A stretch of 64,000 nt of DNA from Klebsiella phage 05F01, in the sequence record LC483177.1. One strand, 5' to 3'. Position numbers and translations under genes: made by a program. The stretch's first letter is position 1. Each line of letters starts with the position of its first letter. Below the pieces are notes generated by a model. That model searched no databases and was not told the origin of the DNA. It saw only the letters and a program-made list of their open reading frames with translations. Of this stretch, positions 5,662-22,860 are shown one piece after another.

Positions 5662-5721
5662 TGTTGACTATGCCCCAATAATGGGGCATGATACATAAAC
5701 ACCAAACAATGAGGATATAAC

Positions 5722-6164: not shown

Positions 6165-6467
6165 ATGAATTCAGCAAAGTTATTAACACTATTAAGATCA
6201 ATCACTAATGACACGATTAAGGCGTGTCAAATTGGGGAATATACCCCTGATGCCATATTTCGTATCCATAACGAGAAAGTGTTAAATGTCAATAATATTG
6301 TGCGGTATAATCAAGATTTAAATAAAAAAGTTAAATTGAAATACTTTGCTGAAATTCGTAAAATTTCACTTGATCCATGCAGGAATAAAGGTTATGATGT
6401 AATCAGAAACCAGTTAATGACTAAAGCAAAAACATTAACAGGGTGTATCACTTTAAGTAAGCGTTAA
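6165..6467 (+). CDS. hypothetical protein (100 aa)
   Basis: ORF with RBS. Confidence 0.5.
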   Translation: MNSAKLLTLLRSITNDTIKACQIGEYTPDAIFRIHNEKVLNVNNIVRYNQDLNKKVKLKYFAEIRKISLDPCRNKGYDVIRNQLMTKAKTLTGCITLSKR

Positions 6468-6468
6468 G

Positions 6469-6496
6469 TTGACTTTTCGTTATAGCGTCCTATAAT
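6469..6496 (+). promoter_or_regulatory. sigma70-like promoter: TTGACT-16nt-TATAAT, with the -10 embedded in the palindrome ATAGCG...CGCTAT
   Basis: Near-consensus hexamers. The inverted repeat 6482..6487 / 6500..6505 flanks the -10. Confidence 0.55.
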
Positions 6497-6542
6497 GGGC
6501 GCTATAGAGAAGAGAAACTAGTCCAACAAAGAGAGTAAGCAA

Positions 6543-6716
6543 ATGGAAATTATAGCAGAACTTAAAATAAAAGGTATCGACCCGGTTATTATGACTTATG
6601 AGGATCTGCAATATACCGTAATATATGGGGAACAATCAGAAACTTACGATTATTACGATGAGGCGGAGCAGGCTTTTAAAGCGTTTGCCGAGCTTGCGAT
6701 GGATGAATATCGTTAA
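6543..6716 (+). CDS. small hypothetical protein (57 aa), not in the ORF track
   Basis: Hand translation gives MEIIAELKIKGIDPVIMTYEDLQYTVIYGEQSETYDYYDEAEQAFKAFAELAMDEYR. It lies downstream of the 6469 promoter. Confidence 0.35.
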   Translation: MEIIAELKIKGIDPVIMTYEDLQYTVIYGEQSETYDYYDEAEQAFKAFAELAMDEYR

Positions 6717-6723
6717 AAATAAG

Positions 6724-6752
6724 TTGACTTTCTGTAATGGCTGTGGAACAAT
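6724..6752 (+). promoter_or_regulatory. promoter cassette: TTGACT-17nt-AACAAT, with the palindrome AATGGCTGT...ACAGCCATT
   Basis: A duplicate of the cassette at 11480. It is followed by GAAGAGAGAAAC. Confidence 0.45.
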
Positions 6753-6796
6753 ACAGCCATTGAAGAGAGAAACCAAACAATCTAACGAGGTGTAAA

Positions 6797-7018
6797 ATGA
6801 TTACATTTGCAATTATTTCCCTGGTAGCTGGTGAAGTGATGATTAACGATACTTTCCAAGCTGATGAGAATAAACAGGGCGAGATCACTGATGCTTACAA
6901 CGATTGCAAAGCAAACGAACGCATGTTATCACCTTGCATGCTTATGAGTGTGCGAGATGATAAAACAATTGTGTTTACTAATGTTGAAACATGGTATCAA
7001 TTGGTGGTTGCAAAATAA
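6797..7018 (+). CDS. hypothetical protein (73 aa)
   Basis: ORF downstream of the promoter cassette. Confidence 0.45.
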   Translation: MITFAIISLVAGEVMINDTFQADENKQGEITDAYNDCKANERMLSPCMLMSVRDDKTIVFTNVETWYQLVVAK

Positions 7019-7035
7019 ATTTCATCTAGTATAAT
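7008..7035 (+). promoter_or_regulatory. sigma70-like promoter: TTGCAA-16nt-TATAAT
   Basis: Near-consensus hexamers upstream of the 7068 gene. Confidence 0.5.
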
Positions 7036-7067
7036 ACTAACATCACTTGAGCAAAAAGAGGTCACAC

Positions 7068-7325
7068 ATGAAAGTTTTACATAATTATACTGGTATGAAA
7101 ATTTTGGGTATGGATTTTGCCAGCAACTACGGCGACGAAATTCATGGATGCGTTGTGTTCAATTACAAAGGTTTTGAAATTTCTGCCAGCACAGGTGCAA
7201 TTAATGCTGTGCAAGGTATGAACACCGCTGGCCCAACTCCTGTACTCGTTACCAATCTTGCTACTAAAGAAGAGATGGATTTTTACACTATTCAGGATGC
7301 GATTGATCATATCATTACATTGTAA
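7068..7325 (+). CDS. hypothetical protein
   Basis: The track ORF starts at a TTG at 7047. The ATG at 7068 has an AAGAGG RBS and is preferred. Confidence 0.5.
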   Translation: MKVLHNYTGMKILGMDFASNYGDEIHGCVVFNYKGFEISASTGAINAVQGMNTAGPTPVLVTNLATKEEMDFYTIQDAIDHIITL

Positions 7326-7338
7326 TTATTAAAAGTAC

Positions 7339-7366
7339 TTGCAAAGTAAGCTGAGTATTGTATAAT
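7339..7366 (+). promoter_or_regulatory. sigma70-like promoter: TTGCAA-16nt-TATAAT, followed by a leader hairpin (7377..7395)
   Basis: AAAAGTACTTGCAA...TATAAT, then GGGAGAG-atagc-CTCTCCC. Confidence 0.55.
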
Positions 7367-7414
7367 GTTTTTCATAGGGAGAGATAGCCTCTCCCACTTT
7401 TAAGGAATACTATC

Positions 7415-7765
7415 ATGTTTATGAATCTGGCTGATATGGTTGAAGAAAATGGTAAAACCGTTCGTGAAAACAATGAGGCATTGCAACATAACATTCCACT
7501 CTATACAATGGTGGAAGTAGAAAGCGATGAACCTGGGAAATTTTTACGCCTTTTTGTTGTAGAACATGCCCGCGATTGTGATGGTACCCCATTATATTCT
7601 TTGTCGTTTGACAAAAATTCGGTGATTGAACGTAACAAAATGGAACGCGATCTATTATCTAGTACTCCCGGAACATTTGAACATTCTGTTAACGTATCAT
7701 TTTATCATCGCTTTAGTGGTGCAATTTTGAACGGATATCCTGAGAGTTCACTCACTATCATTTAA
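7415..7765 (+). CDS. hypothetical protein (116 aa)
   Basis: ORF with an AAGGAATAC RBS. Confidence 0.5.
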   Translation: MFMNLADMVEENGKTVRENNEALQHNIPLYTMVEVESDEPGKFLRLFVVEHARDCDGTPLYSLSFDKNSVIERNKMERDLLSSTPGTFEHSVNVSFYHRFSGAILNGYPESSLTII

Positions 7766-7778
7766 TACTAAAAAGTGG

Positions 7779-7807
7779 TTGCAAAGTAATTCCAATACTG
7801 TCATAAT
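7779..7807 (+). promoter_or_regulatory. sigma70-like promoter: TTGCAA-17nt-CATAAT
   Basis: AAAAGTGGTTGCAA motif. The track ORF's TTG start codon is actually the -35 element. Confidence 0.45.
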
Positions 7808-7838
7808 GACTTTATTGAAACGAAACAACATTAAGGAA

Positions 7839-8078
7839 ATGAAAATGACTGTACTGAATATTGGTTACTCACGCCGTGTAGAAGTATCAATGGAAGTCGA
7901 GATCGTAGCAGTAGGAGTGGACGCTAATGACCTGATGGAAGGTCTGACAGCGGGAAGCTATGAGGTTATGACTGGTACGGGTGAAATCATTAACAATAAG
8001 GGCGACATAGTAGCACGTTATAAAGAGTATGAGGAAGATAACGAACGTCACTGTGAGTTCGAATTGTTTGAAGAATAA
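7839..8078 (+). CDS. hypothetical protein
   Basis: Start moved from the track's TTG (7779) to an ATG downstream of the promoter, where there is an AAGGAA RBS. Confidence 0.4.
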   Translation: MKMTVLNIGYSRRVEVSMEVEIVAVGVDANDLMEGLTAGSYEVMTGTGEIINNKGDIVARYKEYEEDNERHCEFELFEE

Positions 8079-8361
8079 AGTTTTACTATGGTACTTGACA
8101 ATAGAATCTAGTCCTAGCATGTTTGATACTGAATTAAAAGCTAAAGATGTTTATTTTTTGTTATAGTGGTGATAATATAATACCTTATAAACTTAATACA
8201 TGGTGAATTTATGAAAGGCCCAACAAAAGAAATCATGATAGAAGCAAGTCGATTTTCTAATAAAAAAGAAAAGAGACAATGCTTTATTCTTTGTGGTGTA
8301 ACGCTTGCAATTGGTTTAATTTGTGTTATCATCACTTATACAAACATTTGAGGGCCTTAAA

Positions 8362-8658
8362 ATGAAATCAACAAAAGAATATTTCTTCCTTAATGAGATC
8401 AAAGACGGGGTTATTGTTAGCATTGACAATGACACAAAATCACCTAATACAACTTCTCTTCATTTCACAGAAGAGGTGGCACCATACAGTAAAAACTTGT
8501 ATATTGAAGTGAAACAAGTATGTCCTAATGAATATACTATAGCTTATGAGGCTACATCAAAGAGCATACAAGAACAGATTAGTCAAGTAGAATCTAAGAA
8601 AATTCCTGGTGAAATTCTTAACTGCACAATTGCATTGATAGTGAATGATTTTTTCTAA
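8362..8658 (+). CDS. hypothetical protein
   Basis: Internal Met (MKSTKEY) with a GAGGG RBS chosen as the start. Confidence 0.45.
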   Translation: MKSTKEYFFLNEIKDGVIVSIDNDTKSPNTTSLHFTEEVAPYSKNLYIEVKQVCPNEYTIAYEATSKSIQEQISQVESKKIPGEILNCTIALIVNDFF

Positions 8659-8724
8659 AAAGTAGTTGACACTTATTATCTAGTATAAGAAAATACATAT
8701 CAAGGGCGGGGATGTCTTCGCTTA

Positions 8725-9084
8725 ATGAGAGAAAACAAAATGACTAAAGAAATTAACAAAGCTCCTAAAGTTGATGTAAATCTTTCTGATGTTGAATGTG
8801 TTCATATCCTGGCGCGGCGATGGTTCCAACGTTCATATGGAAACACTTACTTTTCTTTGTCGGTTGATGTAGAGGTAGATGGTAAATTAATTGAGGTTGT
8901 TAATGTCCCGTTTGAATATGGATATGGAGATCATTACGACACGGTGGCATTGCAGCAATTTAAAAAAGCTGTTAATATCGATATAGATTTAGCTGATTAC
9001 TGCTACTTGTCGCGTAGCCTTAAGGAATCAGGGATCAAAGTATACAACCATGTTTCTGATGTAGACCGTAAAAAAGATTTATAA
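8725..9084 (+). CDS. hypothetical protein (119 aa)
   Basis: ORF downstream of the AAAGTAGTTGACA motif at 8659. Confidence 0.5.
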   Translation: MRENKMTKEINKAPKVDVNLSDVECVHILARRWFQRSYGNTYFSLSVDVEVDGKLIEVVNVPFEYGYGDHYDTVALQQFKKAVNIDIDLADYCYLSRSLKESGIKVYNHVSDVDRKKDL

Positions 9085-9089
9085 AAAGA

Positions 9090-9118
9090 TTGACAGTAAG
9101 AAAGGTATAGCAGATAAT
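9090..9118 (+). promoter_or_regulatory. sigma70-like promoter: TTGACA-17nt-GATAAT
   Basis: Near-consensus hexamers. Confidence 0.5.
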
Positions 9119-9172
9119 GTATCACATAGAGCGGGGCAATGGTGCAACGCTAAATAATCAGAGTAGATTAAA

Positions 9173-9556
9173 ATGGAACATAAAGAACATATTAAAAACG
9201 CGGTAGCAGTTCGTGAGTATGTAGTAAACGCGATTGATTGCTCTGGTGATACAACTCAAAAGTTAAATTATTTTTTCAAAAACTTCAAAGCTGAATACGA
9301 TTATGAAGCAAATCGTAAACGTTATGGAAGTTTGACTAACATGGTAAGAGAGTACCTGTTAGGGCTTCCATCTACAATAAGTGTTGAATTCACTTATTTT
9401 GAGATCGAAAAACTTCTTAAAGAGTGGGGCTATATCCATGATAGAACCACTGAAAAACAATATGAAATTGAACTTGATAATTATTGGAAATACCTTGCTG
9501 TTGGGCTTTGCGTGATGGGGCGTAGAGCGGGGATTAAAGGCATTAAAGGTTTATAA
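9173..9556 (+). CDS. hypothetical protein (127 aa)
   Basis: ORF. Confidence 0.5.
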   Translation: MEHKEHIKNAVAVREYVVNAIDCSGDTTQKLNYFFKNFKAEYDYEANRKRYGSLTNMVREYLLGLPSTISVEFTYFEIEKLLKEWGYIHDRTTEKQYEIELDNYWKYLAVGLCVMGRRAGIKGIKGL

Positions 9557-9562
9557 AAGTAG

Positions 9563-9590
9563 TTGACTATTCGTTATGACCTGTTAGAAT
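9563..9590 (+). promoter_or_regulatory. promoter cassette: TTGACT-16nt-TAGAAT, with the palindrome ATGACCTGT...GCAGGTCAT
   Basis: A duplicate of the cassette at 12165. It is followed by AGAGAAAAGAAAC. Confidence 0.55.
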
Positions 9591-9637
9591 GCAGGTCATA
9601 GAGAAAAGAAACTAACCACTAATCGGGAATATAAAAA

Positions 9638-10030
9638 ATGAACGCATCTAACTTTGACTTTTCAAACATCGTTGTAGAATCAACTGAATCATTGAAAGGT
9701 TTTAGAAGAGAAAGCGGATATTATAAGTCACTTTCTTTAGTTGCTTTATATGGTGAAGAAATTCGTTCATTTGCTGAAATACGCTATTATAAGACTAAAG
9801 CTACAAACTCTGTTTGTTTCTGGATTCATTCCCCAATTTTAGGCCTATATGGTCAAGTTGGCGGTAAAGCTGGTGGTTATGGATATAATCGTGCTGAGGC
9901 GGCATTATCACAGGCAGCTAATAAATTTAACATTGCTGTCCCTTCTTGGTGTGATGAAAAAAGATTATTAGAAGAATTTGCAAAATATTTAGGTTTAGAA
10001 GTATATTCTGTTATTGAAACCAACGCATAA
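9638..10030 (+). CDS. hypothetical protein (130 aa)
   Basis: ORF. Confidence 0.5.
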   Translation: MNASNFDFSNIVVESTESLKGFRRESGYYKSLSLVALYGEEIRSFAEIRYYKTKATNSVCFWIHSPILGLYGQVGGKAGGYGYNRAEAALSQAANKFNIAVPSWCDEKRLLEEFAKYLGLEVYSVIETNA

Positions 10031-10048
10031 ATAAAGGAGAAAGTAAAG

Positions 10049-10294
10049 ATGAAAAAAGAAATTAAAAGTAATGTAACGCCGAAAGCTGGTGATTCTGTTT
10101 ATATTGGTTTCATCACTGAAAACGGTGTTTTTCAGAAAGGTAAAGCAATGTTTACATTCGATAAAATCGACGCTGTTTATGCTGAAACCAGCAACAACAA
10201 AAAGGGAGATCTGCTGTATCATGTTCGTGTGAAATCTGGTGATTTCCTTAAAGTTTTGATGACAAGTAAAGGGCATTGGCAAGCGGTAGCATAA
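10049..10294 (+). CDS. hypothetical protein (81 aa)
   Basis: ORF with an AAGGAGAAAG RBS. A terminator follows. Confidence 0.5.
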   Translation: MKKEIKSNVTPKAGDSVYIGFITENGVFQKGKAMFTFDKIDAVYAETSNNKKGDLLYHVRVKSGDFLKVLMTSKGHWQAVA

Positions 10295-10307
10295 AAAATC
10301 TTTAATA

Positions 10308-10335
10308 AAAGCGCCAGTAAAGGCGCTTTTTTATT
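10308..10335 (+). terminator. rho-independent terminator: GCGCC-agtaaa-GGCGC + TTTTTT
   Basis: Hairpin followed by a T-run. Confidence 0.6.
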
Positions 10336-10376
10336 TGGTAGACTGTTATTATCTTTATTCTCTGAGAGTGTAATGT

Positions 10377-10628
10377 ATGTTCTATTTGAAAGTTAACAAT
10401 GTTGTGTTAAGGTATGACACTATAGAGGCGTTATCTCTTGCCAGGTATATTGCCACGTTTCCCGGTTCTGTTATCAAGATCCCCGATGGTTGGAAAGTAT
10501 GGAACCATAGAACCGGAATCAATACATTCATAAGAGAGTTATCAAATGGATACACTTACAATCTGTCACCTTGTAATGATGGGGCTAGCCTCTATCGTTT
10601 ATGTGCTGTTATCTCTGGAGGAGGTTGA
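10377..10628 (+). CDS. hypothetical protein (83 aa)
   Basis: ORF. Confidence 0.4.
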   Translation: MFYLKVNNVVLRYDTIEALSLARYIATFPGSVIKIPDGWKVWNHRTGINTFIRELSNGYTYNLSPCNDGASLYRLCAVISGGG

Positions 10629-10630
10629 CA

Positions 10631-11311
10631 ATGGGTCGTGAATATGTAATTCAATCTTGGGTGAAGCATGATAAAGGGGATCACAGAATCATCCCAGATG
10701 AACTAATAGATCATGCACCTGGTTACAGTGGTGAACAGATTGGAAACCGCAACGCAAAGAGCAATGGCAACACATGGTCACGTGTAGCGCCTGGCTGGTT
10801 ACCTAATGGTAAAGCTGACCTATCAACTGCTGTTGATGTCTCAGAAGAGAGCAAAGGTAATCCCCTGGTCTTGGTAGACAGTGCATATAAAACACTCTTA
10901 GATTATGAGGGTAAAGTTACAGCGCTAAAAAATGCCCTTGCAGCACATAAGATAACTAAAGGTAGTTATGATCAAGCTCTTAAAGTGTTAGATGCCAAGC
11001 TGTACAACGCTGAGAAGCGTTTAGAGAAGCTACTTAATACTATCCCACCAGATGAGGATAAAAGCTCTTATATTGAGTCTGAGGAGGTTTTAGAGGAGGA
11101 TGAATACCCGCTACATTATCCACATGGTGCGGAGAAATTTAAATCAGATTATTTTTATGAAAATTGTATTGTGACTGTTGACGTGCAGAAAGAAAGCTCC
11201 TATGATGTATCACATAGAGAGGCAATAATGCCAATCAACAAAAGAGATAAATCATTATGGCAAATCTTAACATTGTTTTTTATAACAATGCTTCCAACGG
11301 TGAAAGATTGA
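10631..11311 (+). CDS. hypothetical protein
   Basis: Start placed at MGREYV, which has a GGAGGAGG RBS. Confidence 0.5.
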   Translation: MGREYVIQSWVKHDKGDHRIIPDELIDHAPGYSGEQIGNRNAKSNGNTWSRVAPGWLPNGKADLSTAVDVSEESKGNPLVLVDSAYKTLLDYEGKVTALKNALAAHKITKGSYDQALKVLDAKLYNAEKRLEKLLNTIPPDEDKSSYIESEEVLEEDEYPLHYPHGAEKFKSDYFYENCIVTVDVQKESSYDVSHREAIMPINKRDKSLWQILTLFFITMLPTVKD

Positions 11312-11472
11312 TCAGTGTTATGGTGAATGGGTTTAGTGAAATGGATCTCCCTGTTGATGAGTATCTGACAGTGTTTTCTTTCCTTGACTCTTTAGTTGAA
11401 ATGTGTGTCATTACAAATGAACAGAAACAAGAAAAGATTAAACGGATTAAAAAAGTTCTAGATATCGAATAA
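11257..11472 (+). CDS. hypothetical protein (71 aa)
   Basis: Overlaps the 3' end of the previous ORF. Uncertain. Confidence 0.3.
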   Translation: MANLNIVFYNNASNGERLISVMVNGFSEMDLPVDEYLTVFSFLDSLVEMCVITNEQKQEKIKRIKKVLDIE

Positions 11473-11479
11473 AAAGTAG

Positions 11480-11508
11480 TTGACTTTCTGTAATGGCTGT
11501 TAGATAAT
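11480..11508 (+). promoter_or_regulatory. promoter cassette: TTGACT...GATAAT, with the palindrome AATGGCTGT...ACAGCCATT
   Basis: Duplicate of the cassette at 6724. Confidence 0.5.
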
Positions 11509-11543
11509 ACAGCCATTGAAGAGAGAAACTAACAGGTGATAAC

Positions 11544-11690
11544 ATGAAACAATATGTAATGAAGATTCACACTAAAAACGGCGCTACTGTTTCAACTCCT
11601 TTAAGATTTGCAGTAAAAACACGTTGCAATCGCCTTAAAAGAGAGTTATCTTTAAACAAAGATTCTGGATTTAGACGTTGGGGAAAGTGA
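11544..11690 (+). CDS. small hypothetical basic protein (48 aa), not in the ORF track
   Basis: Hand translation gives MKQYVMKIHTKNGATVSTPLRFAVKTRCNRLKRELSLNKDSGFRRWGK. Confidence 0.3.
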   Translation: MKQYVMKIHTKNGATVSTPLRFAVKTRCNRLKRELSLNKDSGFRRWGK

Positions 11691-11692
11691 AG

Positions 11693-12052
11693 ATGAAAAA
11701 ATTAATCATTGCTCTTACTTTAGTTTCATGCTCTTTTAGCTCTATGGCTTCGGATTCTACCTACCCATATTTAAAGGCTAAAGAAGACATTAAAAACTAT
11801 ACATTGGTTGCTTTTCCTGATAAAGAGCCAATTGATACTGCATATTCATTATTAAATATGGTTGATAATGAAATTGGAAAACAGCTTGCAAATAACCAGG
11901 ATTGTAGATACACTAAAGATACAGTAGTTCCTGCCGTGTCATATATTACACGAAAAGAAGATAGCAACAAAGTAATTGAGAATTTGCATAATAAAATGGT
12001 GAAATCTGTTTCTGATTATGTTACTGTTAAGTGTAAGGAGTTAACAGAATGA
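11693..12052 (+). CDS. putative lipoprotein (lipobox LVSC)
   Basis: Signal peptide MKKLIIALTLVSCSF. Confidence 0.5.
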   Translation: MKKLIIALTLVSCSFSSMASDSTYPYLKAKEDIKNYTLVAFPDKEPIDTAYSLLNMVDNEIGKQLANNQDCRYTKDTVVPAVSYITRKEDSNKVIENLHNKMVKSVSDYVTVKCKELTE

Positions 12053-12164
12053 AATTTTTAATTAAAAAAGAAAATAGCTTGACAGTTGGGGTATTAAATG
12101 GTTTAATTTGTTGTATCCCTTTTTACTTTGTTTTATTTATTATCTTTTTAGTTATAAAATGTGC

Positions 12165-12192
12165 TTGACTATTCGTTATGACCTGTTAGAAT
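12165..12192 (+). promoter_or_regulatory. promoter cassette: TTGACT-16nt-TAGAAT, with the palindrome ATGACCTGT...ACAGGTCAT
   Basis: Near-identical copy of the ~60-bp region at 9563. Confidence 0.55.
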
Positions 12193-12238
12193 ACAGGTCA
12201 TAGAGAAAAGAAACCACAACCAACAAAGAGAGATACAA

Positions 12239-13348: not shown

Positions 13349-13378
13349 TTGACAAGCCCCAGGGAATGGGGCTATAAT
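13349..13378 (+). promoter_or_regulatory. strong sigma70-like promoter, TTGACA-18nt-TATAAT, with no downstream ORF
   Basis: Consensus hexamers. The spacer contains the palindrome CCCCA...TGGGG. Confidence 0.55.
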
Positions 13379-13673: not shown

Positions 13674-13696
13674 CTATGTGTAAGGGGAAATATCAC

Positions 13697-13744
13697 ATTA
13701 TAAATTTAGGTTTTGGTTTTCCTGGAAAAAAACTTTAAATAAAT
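13697..13744 (+). repeat. 45-bp repeat, copy 1: ATTATAAATTTAGGTTTTGGTTTT-n-AACTTTAAATAAAT
   Basis: One of three copies, at 13697, 13820 and 22812. Confidence 0.6.
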
Positions 13745-13819
13745 GGGAAATTTTTGGTTAAATTTTATTCTGTATTTTAACTTTTACTACCACAGTATTA
13801 ATATTTTTAAACAAACCTA

Positions 13820-13867
13820 ATTATAAATTCAGGTTTTGGTTTTAACAGACAGAAAGTTTAAATAATT
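13820..13867 (+). repeat. 45-bp repeat, copy 2
   Basis: ATTATAAATTCAGGTTTTGGTTTT...AGTTTAAATAATT. Confidence 0.6.
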
Positions 13868-22665: not shown

Positions 22666-22811
22666 ACTAATTGTTTCATTCCCCTTCTTTCAGAAGTGTC
22701 ATGAAACATAGATATATTATATAATCTTTTCCTTCGGAAACCTATAGGGTTAGGGTAACATGGGAATTTAAATACGTCAATACCTAATTTATAAGTTGTT
22801 GTAAACACTAC

Positions 22812-22860
22812 ATTTTAAATTTAGGTTTTGGTTTATGTGGAGAAAAAGTTTAAATAATTA
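22812..22860 (+). repeat. 45-bp repeat, copy 3
   Basis: ATTTTAAATTTAGGTTTTGGTTT...AAAGTTTAAATAATTA. The palindrome TGTTATATTATAACA (22861..22875) follows immediately. Confidence 0.6.

Follow-up and report, generated by a model that had tools for sequence, protein, structure and literature searches.

The early region of Klebsiella phage 05F01, a large virulent myovirus of the phAPEC8/phi92 group, contains five copies of a promoter cassette in which the -10 hexamer forms the loop of a 17-bp hairpin. The window analysed here comprises 64,000 nt of sequence record LC483177.1, and all cassette coordinates are positions in this window. The cassettes are located at 6469, 6724, 9563, 11480 and 12165, all on the (+) strand, and display the same succession of a -35 hexamer TTGACT, a left arm, the -10 hexamer, a right arm and a purine tract (Table 1). 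With a probability slightly above one half (about 0.55), each cassette represents a double-coded module of about 50 bp, which serves as a promoter in the DNA and as a boundary hairpin in RNA that is read through from upstream.

All five promoter cassettes listed in the original prediction, which was made from the sequence alone, were found in place. In a covariance model search of the window they scored 60 to 74 bits, whereas the next match reached 20.8 bits. Due to this gap, the copy number is exactly five per 64 kb, all situated between 6.4 and 12.3 kb, and no further copies of the palindromes occur in the window. The proposed duplication of the A and B types was likewise recovered by a repeat search, with 93% identity over 58 nt for A1 and A2 and 89% over 63 nt for B1 and B2. 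These direct repeats bracket 2.6 and 4.8 kb, respectively. The -35 hexamer is preceded by AAAAATAAG or AAAAGTAG and followed after 16–17 nt by TATAAT, TAGAAT, GATAAT or AACAAT, while the arms are TATAGCG, AATGGCTGT and TATGACCTG. Orthologous sites are annotated as promoters in the record of phage FBKp34.

Table 1. Cassettes, spacer-type promoters and intrinsic terminator in the early block of the window (MFE, minimum free energy; CM, covariance model; ORF, open reading frame)
Feature	Position	Strand	-35	-10	Hairpin	Predicted start	Context	MFE in kcal/mol (z-score)	CM score (bits)
Cassette C	6469..6518	(+)	TTGACT 6469-6474	TATAAT 6491-6496 (= loop)	6473-6514	A6504	stop of upstream ORF ends 6467; downstream ATG 6543	-24.8 (-8.3)	73.6
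Cassette B1	6724..6773	(+)	6724-6729	AACAAT 6747-6752, after TGG	6728-6769	A6759	ATG 6797	-22.5 (-7.7)	63.7
Cassette A1	9563..9612	(+)	9563-9568	extended, TGT-TAGAAT 9582-9590	9567-9608	A9598	ATG 9638	-20.0 (-7.1)	70.7
Cassette B2	11480..11529	(+)	11480-11485	GATAAT 11503-11508	11484-11525	A11515	ATG 11544	-21.3	60.7
Cassette A2	12165..12214	(+)	12165-12170	TAGAAT 12187-12192	12169-12210	A12200	ATG 12239	-19.7	72.5
Spacer-type promoter, sigma70-like	5664..5692	(+)			GC-rich, ATGCCCCA ataa TGGGGCAT 5670-5689		hairpin fills spacer and overlaps start of -10		
Spacer-type promoter	13349..13378	(+)	TTGACA	TATAAT, after 18 nt	AGCCCCA gggaa TGGGGCT 13355-13373		conserved in all relatives		
Intrinsic terminator	10307-10330	(+)			AAAAGCGCC agtaaa GGCGCTTTT, then TTATTT		after ORF 10049-10294, between A1 and B2		

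The hairpin comprises 42 bases, extending from -31 to +11, and its 17 base pairs are arranged in two parts: a lower stem of 6 bp is separated by a 1×1 G/A mismatch from an upper stem of 11 bp, which includes a conserved U·G pair and is closed by a loop of 6–8 nt consisting of the -10 hexamer. Folding of the 50 nt starting at the -35 hexamer yields the structure ....((((((.(((((((((((......))))))))))).))))))...., which is common to the five cassettes and to every relative and at which RNAfold and, unaided, RNAalifold arrive independently. The lower stem spans from the end of the -35 hexamer to about +11. Its 5' side, made up of the last bases of the -35 hexamer and a pyrimidine run (CTTTTC or CTTTCT), pairs with the purine tract, which reads GAAAAG, GAAGAG or AGAGAG. 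Most of the conserved AGAGARRAGAAAC is thereby accounted for as 3' strand of the hairpin. Since AGAGARRAGAAAC moreover covaries with the spacer, it was dropped as an independent leader or enhancer motif; only its trailing AAAC is left unexplained by the lower stem. Likewise, CCAACAAAGAGAG, found downstream of C and A2, was initially considered a sign of chimeric cassettes but was discarded, because ACAAAGAGAG is a common motif of the ribosome-binding region in these phages.

In several respects this architecture departs from the layout given in the original prediction. The dyad is much longer than the palindromes noticed there, as the pyrimidine stretch past the -35 hexamer pairs with the purine tract. 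The arms do not lie wholly upstream of the transcription start either: with the predicted start at the A in alignment column 36, the 3' half of the hairpin reaches about +11. The type C palindrome is present as proposed, but its arms reach 11 pairs if U·G is allowed and its loop is exactly the TATAAT hexamer, in line with type A. For type B, the supposed TAnAAT is in fact AACAAT in B1 and GATAAT in B2, and the 3' flank reads TGAAGAGAGAAAC. Finally, the distance between the terminal GAAAC and the ATG, put at about 15 nt, ranges from 14 to 25 nt and is close to 15 nt in B2 only.

A chance origin of the cassette palindromes is excluded. At the same search geometry, a perfect inverted repeat straddling a given site is found at 0.7% of the window positions for at least 7 bp and at 0.06% for at least 9 bp, and the 50-nt cassettes fold with -19.7 to -24.8 kcal/mol, corresponding to z-scores of -6.6 to -8.3 against shuffled sequences.

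Comparison with related early regions revealed that the pairing is maintained while the sequence changes. The regions compared were those of the Klebsiella phages FBKp34, KP13-16 and FKP3, of Schickermooser (Phapecoctavirus), of Av-05 (Vequintavirinae) and of several IMG/VR contigs. From the phage and its relatives, 15 distinct cassettes were assembled in a gap-free alignment; 27 distinct sequences are obtained by including 12 cassettes outside the model, and 29 distinct cassettes were used for folding. In the set of 15, standard pairs are formed in 96.1% of the pair cells, compared with 41–57% when partners are slid against each other. Double-sided changes are present in 12 of the 17 pairs, and the covariation score was reached by none of 500 shuffles. 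The model in turn detected the 12 additional cassettes, which had not been part of its training set, and 94.3% of the cells pair in the resulting 27 sequences. Among the newly detected cassettes is Av-05 7011, with a -35 hexamer TTGTCT and the lower stem CTTTTA/TAAAAG. Overall, the lower stem occurs as CTTTTC/GAAAAG, CTTTCT/AGAGAG, CTTTTA/TAAAAG, CTCTTA/TAAGAG and CGTTGA/TAAGCG, and the G/A mismatch beside the conserved U·G pair is found in nearly all cassettes.

The upper stem behaves in the same way. Orthologous cassettes with identical flanks carry swapped, but again complementary, arms, such as AATGGCTGT/ACAGCCATT as opposed to ATGCCTCTT/AAGAGGCAT, and TATGACCTG is exchanged for TATGCCCT, TATGCCGT or TATACCG. 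Similarly, the orthologues of B1 in three related loci (L001, L002 and L003) have arms that are different yet complementary. Altogether, at least 10 arm sequences are present among the cassettes and their orthologues. Searching IMG/VR with a strict cassette pattern gave two contigs only. A relaxed pattern gave 118 matches, most of them promoter-like by chance; 108 had straddling arms of at most 5 bp and served as control, and a few real relatives were added in this way (L039, L056, L065, L078 and L117). A search for related loci with the 130-aa protein encoded downstream of A1 retrieved only three. As a separate observation, six seemingly unrelated viral contigs from IMG/VR (L040 3660, L043 5029, L095 1779, L110 897, L123 571 and L125 222) share the arrangement TTGACTTTT..GGTAATAAG actata CTTATTA...TTTAAGAGAAAC, in which an AT-rich promoter hairpin surrounds a -10-like loop and ends in the same AAGAGAAAC tail as the cassettes. 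The cassette layout may thus be more widespread than the rV5-like phages.

The pairing is biased towards the sense strand. Among the non-Watson-Crick cells, G·U on the sense strand outnumbers A·C by 38 to 2 in the 15-sequence set and by 59 to 3 in the 27-sequence set, where the variable part of the upper stem contributes 20 to 0, although these counts are not independent. Each of the 29 distinct cassettes folds more stably in the sense orientation of the RNA, the mean being -21.1 kcal/mol compared with -14.2 kcal/mol for the antisense strand. The five copies in the window show the same preference: their antisense hairpins reach -12.8 to -16.6 kcal/mol, about 7 kcal/mol weaker in every cassette, and a 2×2 internal loop sets the lower stem apart.

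The position of the cassettes indicates that the hairpin is transcribed. Between 5.3 and 13.5 kb the window, which has a G+C content of 35.7%, contains a (+)-strand block of short ORFs, nearly each with a sigma70-like promoter of its own. The ORFs flanking the cassettes encode 48–130 aa, and the PHROG matches are all to families of unknown function, with 2 of the 10 ORFs scanned giving no match. Downstream of each cassette there is a Shine-Dalgarno sequence and then a start codon. On the other side, in 26 of 27 surveyed cassettes, the upstream ORF of the same strand stops between -4 and +8 nt from the -35 hexamer, and in seven of the 27 the TGA stop codon lies inside TTGACT. At A2, for instance, the small hydrophobic ORF 12049-12168 terminates with the TGA at 12166-12168, which belongs to the -35 hexamer. 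A terminator scan listed none of the five cassettes and nothing between them and the upstream ORFs; the only convincing canonical terminator that it listed in the early block is the one at 10307-10330 (Table 1). Therefore, the upstream mRNA must contain the full hairpin as its 3' untranslated region (UTR). The transcript of the cassette itself carries only the 3' half, since its predicted start is the invariant A in column 36. Consequently, the view that the palindromes are DNA features and not RNA hairpins could not be upheld. The presence of the hairpin in the upstream mRNA, together with the sense-strand bias and the covariation, speaks against this view and against operators and cruciforms.

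The following model would account for these features. As double-stranded DNA, the cassette would be a strong early promoter of the sigma70 type, composed of an A-rich upstream region, TTGACT, a 16–17 nt spacer and the -10 hexamer. Transcription is predicted to start at the invariant A about 8 nt past the -10 hexamer, giving rise to an unstructured, purine-rich leader AUAGAGAARAGAAAC... The same bases would also be transcribed from promoters located farther upstream, and in this read-through RNA the 17-bp hairpin would be the first structure after the stop codon, presenting the -10 hexamer as its loop. The arms would occupy those promoter positions that tolerate variation, namely the spacer and the segment from -6 to +11, which would allow a fixed geometry along with free compensatory drift. 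By marking the 3' boundary of the upstream message, the hairpin may attenuate read-through and/or block 3' exonucleases or direct processing of the RNase III type; the latter two are more probable because a U-tract is lacking. Each small early gene would then behave as an expression unit of its own, and the conserved block of about 55 bp could supply the homology for exchange of early genes between phages.

Several points weigh against this model. The activity of the promoter, its start site and the read-through are predictions. Since AAACUA, AAACCA or a similar tail takes the place of a U-tract behind the hairpin, intrinsic termination of the classical kind is unlikely. If counted by position, the strand bias amounts to 8 versus 2 (p = 0.11) and is not significant alone, so that it had to be based on the folding energies and the cell counts, which are not independent. 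Moreover, it depends largely on two conserved U·G pairs, which are inherited rather than independent. A G·T pair also stabilises a DNA hairpin of the sense strand, and the bias therefore does not separate RNA from single-stranded sense DNA. Finally, the rigid geometry, with the -10 hexamer as the loop in every copy, could reflect a role at the promoter level.

The cassettes are also units of mosaicism. The best DNA matches of the region are Stephanstirmvirinae phages of Klebsiella and E. coli, none of which covers more than 23% of the 6.1-kb query. BLAST comparison of the window with its relatives delineated islands in which homology is confined to the cassette, such as 6465-6521, 11471-11532 and 12165-12213. 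The first island, cassette C, is 95–98% identical to L002, L004 and L005. Around B2, similarity to L001 and L004 is limited to 11471-11532; in L001 the genes on either side are found elsewhere, and in FBKp34 they lie about 3.9 kb apart. Around A2, only 12165-12213 matches L001 and L002. In most Phapecoctavirus records, the segment from the -35 hexamer of cassette C through its leader (6468-6550) is the only part of the 6.1-kb query matched by megablast, with about 88% identity in the full-length matches listed and up to 99% in a distant-mode search. Three gene families are found downstream of the type C cassette and four upstream of it. Conversely, in front of the 130-aa gene family downstream of A1, five arm sequences, that of A1 and four others, occur in two subfamilies. 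From these comparisons of sequence, the cassettes appear to delimit sites at which genes were inserted, deleted or replaced among related phages. The earlier analogy to mobile promoter units such as the promoter-early stem-loops (PeSLs) of T4-like phages fits these results, as the layout is that published for PeSLs and the homology islands are joined to different genes in different phages.

Hairpins are not restricted to promoters of the cassette type. In the two spacer-type promoters (Table 1), the hairpin occupies the region between -35 and -10. The class at 5664 recurs in relatives at L001 5464, 10175 and 10482 and at L003 18892, and FBKp34 carries a spacer hairpin GCGCCC...GGGCGC. A further class, at 7339-7400 and 9090-9160, has a GC-rich hairpin in the 5' UTR just past the predicted start (GGGAGAG atagc CTCTCCC; GAGCGGGGCAATGGTGCAACGCT). 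It is also seen at L007 8791, 9661 and 11539, and TAGGGCGGCAATGGTGCCGC recurs after three promoters in Schickermooser. All promoter classes thus present a hairpin to read-through RNA, which supports a role at the RNA level.

Among the other explanations, cleavage by RNase III or another endonuclease is a specific version of the RNA-level explanation and not an alternative to it. In this case, the hairpin would be cut near the mismatch and its 3' hairpin would protect the upstream message, while the downstream message would receive a 5' end close to the one initiated at the promoter. RNase III hairpins in the early region of T7 contain an internal loop, lie between the cistrons of an operon transcribed by the host polymerase, lack a U-tract and stabilise the upstream message. 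The cassettes resemble them in having a two-part stem whose G/A mismatch and adjacent U·G pair are conserved in nearly all copies, in the missing U-tract and in their location between cistrons of an early block transcribed by the host polymerase. RNase III signals are helices of about two turns, in which an internal loop is often present at the position of cleavage. However, the T7 sites have longer stems and no promoter attached to them, and 17 bp interrupted by a 1×1 mismatch fall short of the approximately 20–22 bp of classical substrates. In addition, a search of Rfam at E ≤ 1 gave no model or match at the cassettes. Cleavage would be assumed by analogy to T7 and is given a rather low probability. 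Less probable still is a cruciform acting as a sensor of supercoiling, as had been suggested originally, in which extrusion of the palindrome under negative supercoiling would switch the promoter by a pre-melted -10 or by loss of the -35/-10 spacing. The long dyad is centred exactly on the -10 hexamer and the antisense strand does fold, but the antisense hairpin is the weaker one in 29 of 29 cassettes instead of being equally foldable, and its lower stem is split off. Loops of 6–8 nt, as present here, penalise extrusion, and extrusion would wreck the -35/-10 geometry. Selection for a cruciform should furthermore purge G·T and A·C, yet the cassettes retain the U·G pairs 12/39 and 7/44 as well as the G/A mismatch. 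Hairpins placed in the spacer or 5' UTR of the other promoter classes also fit an RNA role better than melting of the -10.

That the palindromes are operators for different dimeric regulators was a further suggestion of the original prediction. In this reading, which is very improbable, the regulators would be encoded by phage or host, with one specificity for each palindrome type. Many repressor operators have a dyad that overlaps the -10 hexamer, and the presence of three arm types in a single genome would agree with three specificities. Instead of a conserved half-site, however, the arms vary among the five sites and their orthologues, changing by paired substitutions between identical flanks even in close relatives, and at least 10 arm sequences would require an equal number of regulators evolving along with them. 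In the DNA, G·T also breaks the dyad at the positions where G·U keeps the RNA paired, and the neighbouring ORFs scanned against PHROGs include no DNA-binding family. An equally slim chance is assigned to a structure-specific recombination site, at which a recombinase or nuclease would recognise the folded sense strand of the DNA and mobilise single early ORFs. Conserved ends flanking a centre that varies while its structure is kept, the preference for one strand, homology islands bounded exactly by the cassette, the joining of one cassette to several gene families and the direct repeats A1/A2 and B1/B2 would all be in accordance with such a site. Nevertheless, the mosaicism is explained equally by ordinary homologous recombination within about 55 conserved bp, and the conserved ends by the -35 hexamer and the leader; no recombinase was identified, an integrase having been looked for only in the annotations of the records. 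The similarity to integron attC sites, likewise with conserved ends, a variable paired centre and strand bias, is a formal one, as is that to the mini-circles proposed for PeSLs; attC sites are imperfect palindromes that fold from one DNA strand and are recombined at a fixed point by an integrase of their own. Taken together as a pair, an attC-like substrate on the sense strand or, instead, a terminator independent of a U-tract, either of which would make the hairpin more than a passive 3' structure, is quite unlikely. In the latter, the pause would come from the -10 hexamer, through pausing dependent on sigma70 or through a polymerase bound at the promoter, and the release from the hairpin. 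Both are compatible with the data in that the structure is kept while the sequence varies, one strand is favoured, the edges of the islands coincide with those of the cassette and the upper 3' arm extends to 11 nt past the -10 hexamer. Like canonical intrinsic terminators, the cassettes place a stable hairpin directly after a stop codon, but they differ in the missing U-tract and in their absence from the terminator scan. If the recombination reading were true, single early ORFs would move between lytic phages as promoter-carrying cassettes.

The closest known counterparts of the double-coded module are the PeSLs. Arbiol et al. (2010) described PeSLs as sigma70 early promoters whose stem-loop is most often placed in the interval from -35 to -10 or over the -10 itself (PMC2839356). 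A role as terminator or attenuator was proposed, recombination occurs at PeSLs, and one stem-loop lowered the expression of a downstream lacZ to a similar extent as the rrnB T1 terminator (PMC2839356). A later study found PeSLs in further T4-like phages (Comeau et al. 2014, PMC4122927), the phages of the two studies being RB49/phi1, T4/PST and KVP40/nt-1 (PMC2839356; PMC4122927). Shared by PeSLs and cassettes are an early promoter of the sigma70 consensus preceded by A/T-rich DNA, a stem-loop, a Shine-Dalgarno sequence and a start codon. Both are found in plastic early regions, between small ORFs of unknown function, contain G-T pairs, are repeated within a genome and form borders of gene replacement. 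By structure and context the cassettes correspond to PeSLs, as a variant from another phage lineage and no new class of element.

On the other hand, there is no sequence homology between the two, the cassettes belonging to Stephanstirmvirinae and Vequintavirinae and the PeSLs to Straboviridae. While the stem of the cassettes extends with 17 pairs in two parts over the whole core promoter and uses the full -10 hexamer as its loop, RB49 has stems of about 7–8 bp of the type GGGG...CCCC. Direct inspection of RB49 revealed -10-overlapping PeSLs such as GGGGATAT agCATA ATATCCCC, in some of which the -10 is partly in the loop. RB49 stems fold about equally on both strands, in contrast to the strong sense bias of the cassettes. 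The cassettes are also without a U-rich tail, and an attenuator role, measured for one PeSL, would be theirs by analogy. The GGGG...CCCC motif, called frequent but not obligatory by the authors (PMC2839356), is absent from the five cassettes and was seen only in the spacer-type promoters 5664 and 13349 and in RB49. Accordingly, hairpins of the 5664 type resemble the spacer-type PeSLs of RB49. It was also observed that the PeSL leaders of RB49 (L129, RB49 112000-132000; at about 117.4, 119.9, 121.7 and 122.9 kb) share CCGAAACGA downstream of the -10. This recalls the GAAAC at the end of the cassettes and may be a coincidence or a shared leader preference.

Within Vequintavirinae, the early motif AAAA-N3-TGTTGAC-N-TATAAT of the Certrevirus phages CB7 and CR3 is, like the cassettes, a conserved sigma70-like promoter in a block of short hypothetical ORFs (PMC7344957). 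The main text of that paper contains no word starting with 'stem' or 'palindrom' and no 'inverted repeat'. In the literature searched on rV5-like, phAPEC8-like and Stephanstirmvirinae phages, promoter motifs were found and no hairpin is described. The hairpin layer thus appears not to have been described before for this phage group.

Two further features were noticed next to the early block. Behind the spacer-type promoter at 13349, which matches the consensus, the (+)-strand segment 13349-13510 includes about 115 nt without an ORF, which are conserved with 78–83% nucleotide identity in every relative examined, including Av-05, and end in an invariant TTTGTAAAG. In the relatives this segment is inverted and located upstream of the early block. 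It gave no Rfam match and no tRNA call, and is a candidate for a conserved small RNA. In addition, a 55-nt repeat (ATTATAAATTTAGGTTTTGGTTTT...AAAGTTTAAATAA) with a TATAAAT-like box inside is present in three copies at 13688-13742, 13811-13865 and 22803-22857. No ORF of at least 150 aa is listed there, and two of the copies lie in AT-rich DNA beside a switch of the gene strand from + to -.

As a practical consequence, the covariance model could be used to locate early-gene boundaries, the predicted starts and 3' ends supply coordinates that can be tested, and the cassette offers a compact natural design of promoter plus insulator. Many isolates of these phages have been collected with phage therapy or biocontrol in mind. 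With regard to PeSLs, the idea that a regulatory cassette is at the same time the recombination joint for accessory genes is extended beyond T4-like phages. The covariation adds evidence for selection on the stem-loop itself, which is not reported in the PeSL sections consulted. In conclusion, the same 50 bp would hold two overlapping codes, a promoter in the DNA and a structure in the RNA, the latter having been maintained through compensatory changes in two subfamilies of large virulent coliphages and their Klebsiella phage relatives.

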